Assembly: GCA_016707075.1 (NCBI GenBank)
Contig: JADJII010000002.1
Span: forward strand, 261,082-325,081
Origin: Candidatus Egaibacter danicus
Lineage (GTDB): Bacteria; Pseudomonadota; Gammaproteobacteria; Burkholderiales; Burkholderiaceae_C
Reading direction: 5' to 3'
DNA: 64,000 nucleotides
Shown here in pieces: positions 55,036-58,126 of the stretch. The notes beneath the pieces are model-generated. The model was not told where the DNA came from and ran no database searches. It saw only the letters and a list, made by a program, of their open reading frames with translations. Position 1 is the stretch's first letter; each line of letters begins with the position of its first letter. The position numbers were made by a program, and so were the translations under genes.

Positions 55036-55953
55036 TCAGGTGGGCAGGAAACCTTCGATCGACAGGTAGCGCTCACCCGTGTCGTAGTTGAACCCCAGAA
55101 TGGTGGAACCTGCCGGTAACTCGGGCAGTTTTTGTGCAATGGCAGCCAGCGTGGCGCCGCTGGAAATGCCCACCAGAATGCCTTCTTCAGCCGCGCTGCG
55201 GCGTGCGTATTCGCGCGCGGGTTCTGCGTCCACCTGAATCACGCCGTCCAGCAACTCGGTCTTGAGATTTTTCGGAATGAAACCGGCACCAATGCCCTGA
55301 ATCGGGTGAGGTGAGGGCGCTCCACCGTAAATCACCGGCGACGCTGCAGGCTCTACGGCAAACACCTTGAGTTGGGGCCATTTGGCTTTGAGAACCTGCG
55401 CCACGCCACTCAGGTGACCACCCGTGCCCACGCCGGTGATGAGGGCGTCAATGCCACCAGGGAAGTCCGCCAGAATTTCCAGCGCGGTGGTGCGCACATG
55501 CGCTTCGATATTGGCCGGGTTTTCAAACTGCTGTGGAATCCATGCACCTGGCGCGGCTGCGGCCAGTTCCTGCGCACGGGCGATGGCGCCTTTCATGCCT
55601 TTTTCGCGTGGGGTCAGGTCAAAGGTGGCGCCATAAGCGAGCATCAAACGCCGTCGTTCAATGGACATGCTGTCGGGCATGACCAGAATGAGCTTGTAGC
55701 CCTTGACCGCGGCTACCATGGCCAGGCCCACGCCCGTGTTGCCCGAGGTCGGCTCAATGATGGTGGCGCCAGGTTTGAGTTCGCCGCTTTTCTCCGCTGC
55801 CTCCACCATGGCCAGTGCGATTCGGTCCTTGATGGAGCCGCCGGGGTTGCTGCGTTCGGACTTGATATACACCGTATGCGTGTTGCCAAACAGGCGATTG
55901 ATGCGGATGTGGGGCGTATTGCCAATGGTCTGCAGGATGTTGTCGGCTCTCAT
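55036..55953 (-). CDS. cysK: Cysteine synthase (O-acetylserine sulfhydrylase)
   Basis: ..[13 protein letters not shown].. (PLP-lysine), ..TSGNTG.., ..GVGTGG.., ..QGIGAGFIP.., ..GISSGA... Start at ATG 55953, preceded by GGAG. Confidence 0.85.
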
Positions 55954-56047
55954 GTCTGGCTCCGGTGTGAATAAAGACATTCGCATTTTGAGCTACTTCA
56001 TCAATGCGTTTTGATATATGGTTATCAATAGCCGCGATAATGATGGC

Positions 56048-56393
56048 GTGAAGCCCGCCAGACTGCCGCTGGTGCAATCCTGGAAACAGGGCACTGGAGG
56101 AACGTCCGGACTGCATAGGGCAGCGTAGCAGCTAACGGCTGTCCACTGAAAGCCTTTCGTGAAAGCGATGGGTATAAGGTGAGGATCAGAGCAACAGAGA
56201 CGAGCCGCTTGAGTGCGGGTGAAACGGGCAATCTCTACGCGCAGCAATACCAAGTAGGCACACGTTGACGGGGCCCCCGGAGTGTGCGGGTAGGTAGCAC
56301 CGAGCCACTGAGCGATCAGTGGCCCAGATTAATGGCAGTCACGTTGGAGGCAACTTCAACGCACAGAATCCGGCTTATCGGTGGGCTTCACAC
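56048..56393 (+). ncRNA. rnpB: RNase P RNA, bacterial type A
   Basis: P1 pairing GUGAAGCCCGCC / GGUGGGCUUCAC. Universal blocks GGAGGAACGUCCGGAC, CAUAGGGCAG, GCAACAGAGA, GGGUGAAACGG, ACAGAAUCCGGCUUAUCGG, colinear with E. coli M1 RNA. Followed by a T6 tract. Confidence 0.9.
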
Positions 56394-56426
56394 TTTTTTG
56401 TCTCCGGGCCGCGCTGGAGAAAACGC

Positions 56427-56504
56427 GGCAAGGCACACCCGCACGCCGGAGCCTCATACGCTTCGCTTTTTGAAATCGGCTCCAGCATGCGGGTGTGCCT
56501 TGCC
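56427..56504 (-). repeat. Long hairpin element, copy 1 (27-bp stem, 24-nt conserved loop; orientation defined by the loop sequence)
   Basis: ggcaaggcacacccgcacgccggagcc / tcatacgcttcgctttttgaaatc / ggctccagcatgcgggtgtgccttgcc: 25 Watson-Crick pairs plus two positions that are G-T only on the minus strand. Confidence 0.8.
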
Positions 56505-56611
56505 ACTTGCCTCTTCAGTGTCAAGCTATAGTGCGGGCAACGAAACTTGAGGCAATTGATCCAGCAGCCGGGTTGACTTCAAAACCTGCATGCTGCTTTT
56601 CCGGGGTTGTT

Positions 56612-56740
56612 ATGACTGTTCATTTGTCCGGCATGGCGACTGAAAGCCTTGTTATAAGCGGGTTTGCGCTGATATCGGTTGCCTGTGTCAGGGCGATAGT
56701 GGCGATGTTGCGGACACAGAAAGCTGTGTCTCTATATTGA
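56612..56740 (+). CDS. Hypothetical 42-aa single-pass membrane peptide
   Basis: MTVHLSGMATESLVISGFALISVACVRAIVAMLRTQKAVSLY. It ends 13 nt before the HEPN-like ORF. There is no strong ribosome-binding site, so coding status is unproven. Confidence 0.3.
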   Translation: MTVHLSGMATESLVISGFALISVACVRAIVAMLRTQKAVSLY

Positions 56741-56752
56741 GTTGGGCTTCTC

Positions 56753-57424
56753 GTGAGCGCGCGCGTTGACCATGAAGACCTTGCCGTTGGTGCGTGCTAC
56801 GCGATGGCGCACGCTGTCAACGTTCTCGAGGATGCCGCGATCCTGTACTCACAGAAGCGCGCCTCAAGCAGCTTCCACCTTGCTGTCATGGCTCGCGAGG
56901 AACTTGGACGCTTCAATCTTCTCGCGGAGCTGCATTACGGATTGCCCGCCAACGAGTGCGTTGACGCCACCGAGCTCGCGCGACACTTGGAACCTCACAA
57001 GATTAAGCTTCTGGCAGGCCAATCGGTTGTGCCCGTGCCTATGACGCCCGAGCAACTAAAGGCGTGGCAAGCCGCCATCGAGCGAAATGATGAAACGGCG
57101 AGTTCAGCCATCTCACAACAGATTCGCACGAGCGCCGCAAAGCTGAAGCCTCACCAAGCGGCGGCGTTGCACCAACGTCGACTCAAGGCTCAATATGTTG
57201 ACCTTGACCCACAAACGGGTCAATGGTCCCGCCCCTCCGAAGTGTCGATGGCTGACGCGTCCACGCTCATCCGCATCGTCATGGCTGAGATTGCAAATGC
57301 ACTTATTGCCGCTCAGGGTGCTGCGTGGCTTCACGCCGCATTCGCTAGCATCGGAGAACGCAGAACTGAAATGGGCCCGTTCATGCATCGCATCTTTGCG
57401 CGTCTGGGCGAAGGCGATGCCTAA
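56753..57424 (+). CDS. HEPN-domain protein resembling the AbiV abortive-infection family
   Basis: 223 aa, helical-looking. ..AVNVLEDAAILYSQ..FHLAVMAREELGRFNLL.. is followed by ARHLEPHKIKL (an R-x4-H motif). GTG start. The call rests on remembered family features only. Confidence 0.45.
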   Translation: MSARVDHEDLAVGACYAMAHAVNVLEDAAILYSQKRASSSFHLAVMAREELGRFNLLAELHYGLPANECVDATELARHLEPHKIKLLAGQSVVPVPMTPEQLKAWQAAIERNDETASSAISQQIRTSAAKLKPHQAAALHQRRLKAQYVDLDPQTGQWSRPSEVSMADASTLIRIVMAEIANALIAAQGAAWLHAAFASIGERRTEMGPFMHRIFARLGEGDA

Positions 57425-57474
57425 ACGTTCTTTCTGAATGTCCCTTTAAGGCCCCTCAAACCTCAACCACTGCA

Positions 57475-57560
57475 GTGCGGCGAGTCAGGCGCGAATGTTG
57501 GGGGCGATTTCAAAAAGCGAAGCGTATGAGCCCCCGGCATTCGCGGCTGACTCGCCGCAC
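57475..57560 (+). repeat. Long hairpin element, copy 2 (31-bp stem, identical 24-nt loop)
   Basis: gtgcggcgagtcaggcgcgaatgttgggggc / gatttcaaaaagcgaagcgtatga / gcccccggcattcgcggctgactcgccgcac: 28 Watson-Crick pairs, 2 G-T, 1 mismatch. The loop is the exact reverse complement of the copy 1 loop. Confidence 0.8.
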
Positions 57561-57595
57561 GGGTACGGGTTACCCGAGACCGTGCAATGTATAGG

Positions 57596-58126
57596 TCAAC
57601 TTTTGGCCAGCAGCGACTGGCCAAACGCGAACACGGAATTGGGCGCCGTGGTCCGCACCGGCTCCAGCCGGGGTTTCTTGAACACGCCCCGCTTGGCCGG
57701 CTGCTTTTCCTCGGCCTTGAAGCCCTTGGCAAGTTGCTGTAATACCAGGCTTCGCAAGGTGATGGATTGCATGTACTCCTCTACCTTCGAGTTCAACGCG
57801 TCCCACAGGGCCTGGGTCATATCTTGCGCAGAGTCATGCGTTGCCATGGATGCCGTCTCACTGGGCGCTTCGCCCTCGACGGCGCCAATGATGTCTGCCA
57901 CCGTGATGCTGTCCGCACGATGCCCCAGTGCGTATCCGCCACCAGGTCCGCGTGTGCTCTCCACCAGGCCGTGCTGGCGCAGCTTGCTGAACATCTGCTC
58001 CAGGTACGACAGCGAAATCTGGTGACGCACCGCAATTTCAGACAGCGGTACAGGACCGGATTTCTCGCGCAGCGCGACGTCGATCATCGCGGTAACGGCA
58101 AATCGACCTTTGGTACTTAAACGCAT
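57596..58126 (-). CDS. Rrf2-family regulator, IscR-like but lacking all cluster-ligand residues
   Basis: MRLSTKGRFAVTAMIDVALREKSGPVPLSEIAVRHQISLSYLEQMFSKLRQHGLVESTRGPGGGYALG is near-colinear with E. coli IscR. The Cys92/98/104-His107 region reads EGEAPSETASMATHDSAQDMTQALW. AGGAG ribosome-binding site before ATG 58126. Confidence 0.85.
   Translation of the reverse strand: MRLSTKGRFAVTAMIDVALREKSGPVPLSEIAVRHQISLSYLEQMFSKLRQHGLVESTRGPGGGYALGHRADSITVADIIGAVEGEAPSETASMATHDSAQDMTQALWDALNSKVEEYMQSITLRSLVLQQLAKGFKAEEKQPAKRGVFKKPRLEPVRTTAPNSVFAFGQSLLAKS

Follow-up and report, generated by a model that had tools for sequence, protein, structure and literature searches.

An AbiV gene cassette in a probable relic integron platform between rnpB and an Rrf2 gene of Candidatus Egaibacter danicus

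In Candidatus Egaibacter danicus, about 1.2 kb separate the 3′ end of rnpB, the gene of the RNase P RNA, from the stop codon of a gene encoding an Rrf2-family regulator. The window analysed here is a stretch of 64,000 nucleotides (nt) around this interval (contig JADJII010000002.1, positions 261,082 to 325,081), and a first-pass annotation had picked out the interval for its open reading frame (ORF) of 223 amino acids (aa), a 42-aa ORF just upstream, an inverted pair of hairpins and neighbours of housekeeping type. All of these proved to be as described, the gap between the two ORFs being 12 nt (Table 1). The 223-aa protein belongs to the AbiV/HEPN family, and its gene, abiV, is an integron gene cassette. 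We consider it probable that the interval as a whole is a decayed, integrase-less mini-integron, which carries this one AbiV cassette and is bordered on each side by a copy of a dispersed hairpin repeat, the two copies being inverted relative to each other.

Table 1. Features of the insert and its two neighbours, in window coordinates; labels of the form L160 denote sequences compared with the window
Feature	Position	Strand	Basis
Whole strain-variable insert: hairpin element A, probable relic integron platform, AbiV cassette, hairpin element B	56396–57595	.	Presence/absence in relatives
rnpB (bacterial RNase P RNA, class A), intact left neighbour, outside the insert	56050–56393	+	Rfam RF00010, 206 bits, model positions 1–367
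Hairpin element A, stem arms 56427–56453 and 56478–56504, invariant loop	56418–56545	- (better-folding strand)	Limits from copies in L160, L127, L110, L115 and L173
Probable remnant of integron integrase 5′ end, start codon lost, cut at the element A junction	56546–56605	-	GCAAyTGrTCCAG block shared with class 1 intI1; translation
attI-like region, crossover G at 56741	56606–56741	+	Similarity to class 1 5′-conserved segment
TTGTTATGACTGTT, matching the class 1 5′-conserved segment	56607–56620	+	Within attI-like region
42-aa ORF, ATG start, most likely not a functional-peptide gene	56612–56740	+	No homologue, no codon bias
Direct repeats GGCGATAGT/GGCGATGTT, the second aligned with attI1 DR1	56692–56709	+	Within attI-like region
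Sigma-70-like site	56711–56738	+	9 of 12 positions; not above shuffle expectation
Small hairpin GGACACAG-AAAG-CTGTGTCT, just upstream of the cassette	56712–56731	+	Read from sequence
AbiV gene cassette, G↓TTGGGC to ..GCCTAAAC-G↓	56742–57427	+	Homology limits, shared leader, replacement in L129
abiV coding sequence with GTG start; 223-aa RNase of the HEPN superfamily, AbiV abortive-infection family	56753–57424	+	PF18728, TIGR04498, PADLOC, homologues, fold
Collapsed attC: R′′-like GCCTAAAC (overlapping the TAA stop), directly followed by composite R′ GTTCTTT	57419–57433	+	attC of homologues at the same place
Short tail TTCTTTCTGAAtgTCCCtTTAAGGC, common to the nucleotidyltransferase haplotype	57428–57454	+	Window–L129 homology resumes at 57424–57428
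Hairpin element B, stem arms 57475–57505 and 57530–57560, inverted relative to A	57455–57575	+ (better-folding strand)	Copies in L004, L173, L160, L121 and L137
Rrf2-family regulator without Cys cluster, intact right neighbour	57596–58126	-	Pfam PF02082, 116 bits

The AbiV protein and its cassette

The 223-aa protein exceeds the cut-offs of both family models for AbiV, scoring 60.1 bits with Pfam PF18728 (HEPN_AbiV; cut-off 27.1) and 62.8 bits with NCBIfam TIGR04498 (AbiV_defense; cut-off 27), and it is also matched by the AbiV model of PADLOC (5.5e-5). An AlphaFold model built with 27 homologues as input (pLDDT, the predicted local distance difference test, 91.9; pTM, the predicted template-modelling score, 0.86) was compared with the PDB using Foldseek, and ranks 1–24 were all taken by Lactococcus AbiV (9bj5, 9bj6 and 9bj7) with probabilities of 0.98–1.0, the next match falling below 0.35. 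The HEPN assignment of the first-pass annotation, drawn from a few helical motifs, is thus borne out by profiles and fold alike. The TM-scores to the AbiV structures are moderate (0.45–0.62 on target, 0.35–0.46 on query), and sequence identity to Lactococcus AbiV is 12–16%. The 52 AbiV homologues that were found come nearly all from metagenomes, and most have a length of exactly 223 aa; no identical copy of the window protein was present in the contig index.

An alignment of 27 homologues shows that all 20 family-invariant residues are kept in the window AbiV, among them D27, R36, E49, E50, G52, R53, K85, H140, R143, Q147, Y148, W158 and E179. The stretches VLEDAAILY, AREELGRFNLL and ARHLEPHKIKL, the last of which had been singled out for its R-x4-H motif, are present, and R77-x4-H82 with them. 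Only half of this motif stands as a family feature: H82 is invariant in the 27 homologues, whereas R77 varies within the clade. This pattern agrees with the earlier finding that AbiV departs from the canonical HEPN motif and uses an alternative His (Anantharaman 2013, PMC3710099). In Lactococcus AbiV, the catalytic stretch is 91-RNHKSKH-97 (R91/H97), a flexible segment between core helices (Zhu 2024, bioRxiv 10.1101/2024.05.05.592566), and R77..H82 would be its counterpart, given its position between the core helices. Since Lactococcus AbiV is an rRNA-cutting HEPN RNase (bioRxiv 10.1101/2024.05.05.592566), the window AbiV should, by homology, be a metal-independent RNase that works as a dimer and cuts rRNA when infection occurs.

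The abiV ORF is complete in three haplotypes (the window, L084 and L118), and the ratio of nonsynonymous to synonymous changes (dN/dS) relative to the cassette homologues is 0.14–0.76. Between the window and L118, abiV differs by 1.5% and the adjacent noncoding leader by 6.5%; the low divergence of the gene relative to its leader may reflect a recent cassette exchange or selection on the protein. In the same pair of sequences (window 56753–57424, L118:733–1404), 8 of the 10 abiV changes are nonsynonymous.

That abiV is a gene cassette can be read from its ends and from the limits of its homology. The window cassette starts with GTTGGGC-TTCTC-GTG at 56741–56755, which fits a G↓TTRRRY boundary with a short leader and a single promoterless ORF behind it, and a leader of TTRRRY, 5 nt and GTG or ATG is common to L001, L002, L085, L086, L192 and L193. 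In the cassette homologues, the R′ core GTTAGGC (or a close variant) is followed by five bases (ATCTC) and the start codon, and at the other end the R′′ box GCCTAAC contains the TAA stop. DNA homology between the window and L085, L086/87, L001 and L002 is confined to 56732/56741–57424/57430; likewise, homology at AbiV loci elsewhere covers the ORF, 11–21 nt upstream and 0–6 nt downstream. As the DNA similarity is limited to the cassette, the conserved unit includes neither the small ORF nor the two hairpins.

The homologues show what such a cassette looks like with its attC sites. In L002 (76% identity), AbiV is one cassette among small same-strand ORFs, with 21 attC sites (GCCTAAC ... GTTAGGC, 81–87 nt), and in L001, L085, L086/87 and L195 attC sites flank AbiV on one or both sides. 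AbiV has been reported as the third most frequent known defence system in the cassettes of chromosomal integrons (Darracq et al., bioRxiv 10.1101/2024.07.02.601686). The L002 region (L002:1–11334) is a sedentary-integron array whose 21 attC sites are near-identical and whose cassettes include several GNAT acetyltransferases as well as DinB-like and tautomerase-like proteins. The AbiV cassette in this array bears the attC type of its host array; L001 and L086 share a different, 70-nt type. Distant AbiV homologues adjoin a convergent tyrosine recombinase in L195–L197 (L195:6001–7685; attC upstream), and another, in L003 (L003:3747–5194), adjoins an IS200-like Y1 transposase and has no cassette signals; the presence of this Y1 gene beside AbiV looks coincidental.

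At the 3′ end, where the homologues carry GCCTAAC, 55–80 nt and GTTAGGC, the window has GCCTAAAC at 57419–57426, followed by the composite R′ box without any intervening stem. attC sites were sought by explicit box-plus-fold scanning, since the alignment meant for an attC covariance model mis-aligned short attC types. Mini-attC sites consisting of an R′′ box, 0–7 nt and an R′ box recur in at least three independent lineages: GCCTAAT-ATCT-GTTAGGT in L193/194 (L193:6660–6690; 49% identity, defence-island-like context), GCCTAAC-GAATAAG-GTTAGAT in L085 (L085:1240–1273), and GCTTAAC-GAATAAG-GATAGGT in L204 (L204:3400–3430), here 3′ of a nucleotidyltransferase cassette. This recurrence suggests a common route by which cassettes lose the attC stem-loop. 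Loss of folded attC sites by replication slippage, fixing the inserted cassettes, has been proposed (Loot et al., bioRxiv 10.1101/2022.09.11.507474), and fused cassettes without attC are known (PMC4670013).

A different cassette is found in L129, which is 92–93.5% identical to the window over two stretches, one from rnpB to 56747 and the other from 57424 into the Rrf2 gene. Between these shared flanks lie 491 nt in L129 versus 676 in the window, and the replacing segment consists of GTTAGGC, seven bases, an ATG and the ORF of a 118-aa Pol-beta/MNT-type nucleotidyltransferase (Pfam PF18765, 37.8 bits), ending in a short attC-like repeat, GCCCAAC ... GTTGGCT, that was not validated as a full attC. 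This nucleotidyltransferase allele occurs, identical and at the same locus, in 6–7 contigs from several samples (L129, L198–L203), including one NCBI assembly. The slot remains a site of cassette difference: in sister strains, the nucleotidyltransferase cassette starts at the same G↓TT as AbiV.

The probable integron platform upstream and the flanking hairpins

Upstream of this crossover, positions 56546–56741 probably represent, on sequence similarity, the remnant 5′ end of an integron integrase gene (intI) and an attI-like site, with AbiV as its first-position cassette. On the minus strand, the intI remnant reads ..KSTRLLDQL compared with ..RSVKVLDQL in IntI1, over ~13–20 codons or ~60 nt, and its reading frame breaks at the junction with hairpin element A. 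As query, we used 145 nt of the class 1 5′-conserved segment (5′-CS), which was checked at 100% identity against thousands of plasmids (reference sequence L206). The local match comprises 20 of 23 bases, a score reached by none of 2000 shuffles; against real-sequence decoys (2116 windows of the same 64 kb), the local score of 35 compares with 17.4 ± 2.3. A 229-nt global alignment to the intI1 start and attI1 gave a score of 30, above all 1000 shuffles (9.1 ± 3.2) and above the real decoy windows (8.7 ± 3.3, maximum 27). In addition, the window and the class 1 sequence agree in having 136 nt from TTGTTATGACTG to the crossover G↓TT.

Four blocks are common to the window, L118, L129 and class 1 integrons. 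The first, GCAAyTGrTCCAG, encodes ..LLDQL on its minus strand, matching ..VLDQL of IntI1; the second, TTTTC..GG.TTGTTATGACTGTT, covers the intI start and the promoter/LexA area, the ATG having been lost in the window; the third, CGATGTTrCG, corresponds to DR1 of attI1; and the fourth, AGTTrGGC, is the crossover. A related platform is no surprise in a Rhodoferax-like genome, since class 1 integrons are proposed to have come from environmental Betaproteobacteria (PMC3575428).

The 42-aa ORF is hydrophobic and lies wholly inside the attI-like region, its TGA stop being the three bases directly before the crossover G and ending 12 nt before the abiV GTG. Profile searches gave no family match, and no homologue was found among 5.8 billion proteins. 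The frame is open in four haplotypes, across which the variable sites fall 6/5/6 by codon position; codon changes number 8 nonsynonymous versus 3–4 synonymous in the comparisons of the window with L118 and with L129, the ATG has become ATC in L129, and L118 has G17E inside the supposed helix. Beside AbiV in L001, L002, L003, L085, L086, L192, L193 and L195, the ORF is absent. It most likely encodes no functional peptide and is at most a leader ORF inside attI. In that capacity, it could at most act like the attI1 leader ORFs (ORF-11/17/18), aiding translation of the first cassette; for these, it is translation and not the peptide that aids first-cassette expression, and amino-acid changes are tolerated (PMC8876359). 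Just upstream of the cassette, the small hairpin at 56712–56731 is perfect in the window and L084, kept in L118 by a C-G to G-C double change and a G.T pair, and marred by two mismatches in L129, the nucleotidyltransferase haplotype, a sample too small to call selection.

Two larger hairpins bracket platform and cassette. Over 80 nt, elements A and B show 78% complementarity, and one and the same 23-nt loop occurs in both, oppositely oriented. Their folding z-scores are -4.4 for the left hairpin (plus strand) and -10.9 (plus) or -7.4 (minus) for the right one. Element B folds at -49.8 kcal/mol on the plus strand versus -43.1 on the minus strand and, because the better-folding strand is the plus strand, any transcript of abiV has this hairpin in its 3′ region. 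At least 104 metagenome contigs, and also Rhodoferax sp. BLA1, contain the loop 20-mer without AbiV. Among 98 distinct copies of the family, the 26-nt loop GAUUUCAAAAAGCGAAGCGUAUGAG is invariant and contains a GCGAAGC mini-hairpin, and the 27-bp stem is 94% canonical, most positions showing three to six pair types and some U.G pairs being fixed. Folding is better on the strand carrying GAUUUCAAAAAGCGAAGCGUAUGAG in 97 of 101 copies (-61.7 vs -50.0 kcal/mol). The hairpins are hence independent of AbiV and form a dispersed, unannotated repeat family. This family has the appearance of a structured RNA or single-strand DNA element, not described so far, from Comamonadaceae-like freshwater/sludge bacteria.

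Several known identities were considered for the hairpins and rejected. They are not attC sites, as they have no RYYYAAC/GTTRRRY boxes and the scan found no attC near abiV; nor do they correspond to a known RNA, there being no Rfam family and only chance matches to miRNA precursors far below thresholds. The loop gave 0 matches in viral contigs, which speaks against phage DNA, and a literature search for the loop sequence found no match. Identity with repetitive extragenic palindromes (REPs) and their associated tyrosine transposases (RAYTs) was rejected since no Y1 transposase was found in the window (tblastn, 64 kb) or at the hairpin loci.

Copies of the hairpin measure ~80 nt (56425–56504 and 57475–57560 in the window; L004:480–530; L088–L191). 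Inverted A/B doublets, 10–105 nt apart, occur at unrelated loci (L173:3235–3438, L137:5652–5852, L121:763–963, L160:9443–9727 and L127:3242–3508), and loci with two copies nearly all have them in the same +/- loop orientation. A GTAG start is seen in some B-type copies only. At one locus, present in three versions (L128:930–1080, L140:1540–1640 and L155:1720–1800), the hairpin pair encloses (GGTTCA/GGTACA)n, a hexanucleotide microsatellite whose copy number varies.

Variation of the locus among relatives

The 1.2 kb between rnpB and the Rrf2 stop codon (57596–57598, minus strand) is accessory DNA that some relatives have and others lack, as the first-pass annotation had supposed. A genome scan with the Rrf2 protein gave 80 loci. 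Rrf2 and LysR are syntenic in relatives and, where the order LysR-Rrf2-rnpB(-cysK) is kept, the spacer between Rrf2 and rnpB measures 13–167 nt and mostly holds one short terminator hairpin; none of these loci encodes AbiV. The insert with the AbiV allele is found in L084 (98.7% identity) and L118 (96% identity). L014, the metagenome-assembled genome with the most similar Rrf2 (98% amino-acid identity), has 0–13 nt between rnpB and the Rrf2 stop and in this interval no hairpin, no small ORF and no AbiV. The fifteen other syntenic relatives have 16–167 nt here, so that the L014 spacer is shorter than nearly all of them (L020 has 16 nt). Because its spacer is among the shortest and cysK is mostly deleted there too, L014 may have lost the insert rather than preserve an untouched site.

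The suggestion of a landing site at a stable RNA gene's 3′ end was not supported: no direct repeats were found at the insert borders and no duplicated rnpB end, and integration of an island into rnpB with duplication of an att site was rejected on this account. A further candidate, ACTTTT on both sides of the insert as a target duplication, is explained by homologous Rrf2 codons.

The adjoining genes are of housekeeping type (PALP/cysK-like, Rrf2, LysR), and rnpB lies upstream of abiV on the same strand. The Rrf2 regulator of the window (57596–58126) is without the three-Cys cluster of IscR-type proteins, and its C-terminal residues vary between strains (AKS-stop vs PKGS-stop) precisely at the insert border. 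The other flank of rnpB is variable too: cysK is cut to a C-terminal remnant in L014 (L014:5650–5900), and in a strain with the nucleotidyltransferase allele the cysK side (window 55036–55986) is replaced by PagL and DUF2721 genes (L199:217–1303). Given this variation, rnpB sits in a rearrangement-prone spot. In L007, 3.3 kb lie between Rrf2 and rnpB (L007:5546–8872), encoding a 770-aa protein and an HDOD-domain protein; this interval is unrelated to the window insert and was dismissed as a second 'hot-spot' insert, its contents having nothing to do with defence or integrons.

Interpretation and comparison with known systems

Taken together, the probable mini-integron would read, from left to right, as element A, ~60 nt of intI remnant on the minus strand, an attI-like site of ~135 nt up to G↓TT, the cassette, a 27-nt tail and element B. 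Its cassette would be single and promoterless, encoding the 223-aa AbiV-family HEPN RNase and ending in an attC reduced to its two outer boxes. By extension from Lactococcus AbiV, whose structure is solved and whose function has been tested, the protein would form a HEPN dimer that cuts ribosomal RNA upon phage infection, which would stop translation and abort the infection. Transcription of abiV would have to come from the platform, for example from the promoter-like site at 56711–56738, or from rnpB read-through. As for the exchange of cassettes at the slot, any integrase responsible would have to act in trans.

A number of observations weigh against this interpretation. A defining feature of cassettes is missing in the window, where the box-pattern-plus-folding scan found no full attC. 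In line with the first-pass annotation, which had seen nothing else related to mobility nearby, tblastn found neither an integron integrase gene nor a Y1 transposase within the 64 kb, and recombination at the slot is only inferred. The similarity to attI1 is patchy, consisting of blocks of 13–23 nt, and the class of integron cannot be named; the promoter-like site is no better than chance. Nor is the right-hand junction clean: L129 has 10 nt between its attC-like R′ and the shared GTTCTTT. At the level of the protein, R77 of the presumed catalytic motif varies as described above, and a residue-level match to R91/H97 of Lactococcus was not obtained, as a profile search reached 9bj5/9bj7 only at E ~0.5 and over residues 18–56, and a single-sequence search for an alignment with Lactococcus AbiV found nothing. 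Finally, the abiV differences within the locus comprise 0–2 synonymous versus 5–8 nonsynonymous changes, which fits relaxed or diversifying selection.

Among the competing explanations, the one favoured by the first-pass annotation has become very improbable, namely that a 42-aa membrane peptide and a HEPN RNase, with the hairpins in the same unit, make up a new two-gene defence module. The small ORF does exist, with its hydrophobic character, its end 12 nt before abiV and a frame open in four haplotypes, but it is without homologue or family match, it has no codon-position bias and an excess of nonsynonymous changes, and its start codon and 'helix' are altered in L129 and L118, respectively. 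The proposed co-occurrence with AbiV homologues was seen at none of the eight other loci, AbiV homology begins only 11–21 nt before the GTG, the same upstream DNA precedes a non-AbiV cassette, and the flanking structured elements are widespread without AbiV. A second reading of this upstream DNA would turn it into a noncoding RNA (the small-ORF region with the hairpin at 56712–56731) that restrains the RNase, giving a type III toxin-antitoxin pair. Its model is Lactococcus abiV1, which needs a 180-bp untranslated 'small ORF' 12 nt upstream, abiV2, acting as an RNA inhibitor via a small hairpin (bioRxiv 10.1101/2024.05.05.592566). The gap in the window is also 12 nt, the upstream region evolves as noncoding DNA, and the small hairpin is perfect or compensated in the three AbiV haplotypes, with mismatches in the AbiV-less one. 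Yet the comparison rests on four haplotypes, the upstream DNA goes with the slot, staying in place where the cassette is the nucleotidyltransferase one, and it is missing from every arrayed AbiV cassette, where the neighbour is the attC of another cassette; this makes an abiV2-like partner unlikely. We regard as similarly unlikely, or slightly more so, that a lone cassette was inserted at an ordinary genomic site (attC x attG) as in a single attC site lacking an integron-integrase (SALIN), with the upstream 200 nt being unrelated DNA. The target GAG↓TTC does fit the 5′-GWT-3′ consensus, no integrase lies nearby, lone cassettes are frequent and their loss of attC by slippage has been predicted (bioRxiv 10.1101/2022.09.11.507474). 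Against this stand the significant similarity of the upstream segment to the intI1 start and attI1, the identical crossover spacing and the intI-like coding remnant, while a different cassette at the same point in sister strains fits a preferred attI better than a random GWT.

Two further proposals are compatible with a decayed mini-integron and would add to it. Elements A and B might be the terminal inverted repeats of a nonautonomous element carrying the integron fragment, either a MITE (miniature inverted-repeat transposable element) or a mobile insertion cassette resembling an integron mobilization unit (IMU). The inverted, complementary arrangement of A and B, the doublets at unrelated loci with their near-constant orientation and the lack of the whole insert in L014 favour such a vehicle, and defective class 1 integrons flanked by MITEs/IMUs are known, one of them without target duplication (PMC3575428). 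It nonetheless remains a tentative possibility: neither a target-site duplication or border direct repeat nor a transposase was found, ~22 nt at the left end of the insert and ~20–34 nt at its right end belong to no recognisable element, what other hairpin pairs enclose is unrelated DNA and not cassettes, and the short L014 spacer (0–13 nt) may be a deletion instead of an empty site. The other proposal concerns the gene, which may have become a decaying passenger, neither expressed nor of use any longer. In favour of this, attC and integrase are missing, no promoter is convincing, and differences within the locus are nearly all nonsynonymous; on the other hand, the ORF is intact in three haplotypes with the 20 invariant residues kept, abiV diverges less (1.5%) than the adjacent noncoding DNA (6.5%) between the window and L118, and it shares its strand with rnpB, which is highly transcribed. 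On balance, we find decay of abiV itself rather doubtful.

Two more far-reaching readings, which we take as improbable, go beyond the mini-integron interpretation. The A/B hairpin doublet could be a new structured, strand-specific mobile or RNA element that captured part of an integron platform and carried it to the 3′ flank of rnpB, which would give a portable, integrase-less docking site whose cassettes are swapped by an integrase acting in trans. The attI-leader RNA could also serve as an abiV2-like inhibitor, in which case a first-position cassette and its platform would together make a type III toxin-antitoxin pair.

What does this mean for the locus? There is no new HEPN-plus-membrane-peptide system here; an ordinary explanation is now documented and a false lead removed. 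As a putative mini-integron, the insert offers natural examples of an AbiV phage-defence cassette outside any integron array, of a relic attI that differs in cassette content among close environmental strains with no integrase nearby, and of attC collapse to the outer boxes, as seen in at least three independent lineages. Finders that are based on attC would miss such domesticated cassettes, meaning that counts of integron-derived defence genes may be too low. The unannotated hairpin family, with its strong covariation signal, merits a study of its own.

The individual components have precedents, and the first-pass claim of an undescribed system does not hold for them: AbiV, AbiV cassettes in integrons (10.1101/2024.07.02.601686) and integrase-less cassettes (10.1101/2022.09.11.507474) have all been described. 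Lactococcus AbiV (abiV1/abiV2) shares with the window protein the Pfam and NCBIfam family and is its sole significant structural match; an untranslated-looking small ORF ends 12 nt upstream in both, and the R-x4-H stretch of the window (R77..H82) lies between core helices, at roughly the position of 91-RNHKSKH-97. It differs in that identity is 12–16%, R77 is unconserved and the window gene is an integron cassette of Proteobacteria; moreover, the place of the dedicated partner abiV2 is taken in the window by an attI-like platform that is shared with a non-AbiV cassette. The AbiV cassettes of sedentary chromosomal integrons (Darracq et al., bioRxiv 10.1101/2024.07.02.601686) resemble it as single-gene cassettes with a G↓TTRRRY boundary and with homologues in attC arrays, whereas the window has no array, integrase or full attC and presents one cassette on a probable relic platform flanked by core genes.

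With attC clusters that have no integron-integrase (CALIN) and SALIN, as defined by IntegronFinder (PMC4889954), and with domesticated cassettes (bioRxiv 10.1101/2022.09.11.507474), the window has in common the distance from an integrase, the lost attC and the GTT crossover; unlike these, it appears to keep an attI-like site and an intI remnant. The class 1 5′-conserved segment, comprising the intI1 start, Pint/LexA/P2 and attI1 with ORF-11/17/18, is matched in the conserved blocks, the 136-nt spacing and a short ORF ending at the crossover. Here, too, the differences are plain, since the similarity is patchy and not that of a class 1 integron, the putative intI remnant spans ~13–20 codons without a start, and the ORF has 42 codons compared with 11–18. 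Defective integrons flanked by MITEs or IMUs and mobile insertion cassettes (PMC3575428) come close in overall build, with a truncated one-cassette integron between inverted small noncoding repeats, yet the repeat in the window belongs to a new hairpin family with an invariant loop and comes with neither a target duplication nor a known transposase. The AbiV cassette in its probable relic platform thus combines already known kinds of element; the hairpin repeat around it is the unannotated one.

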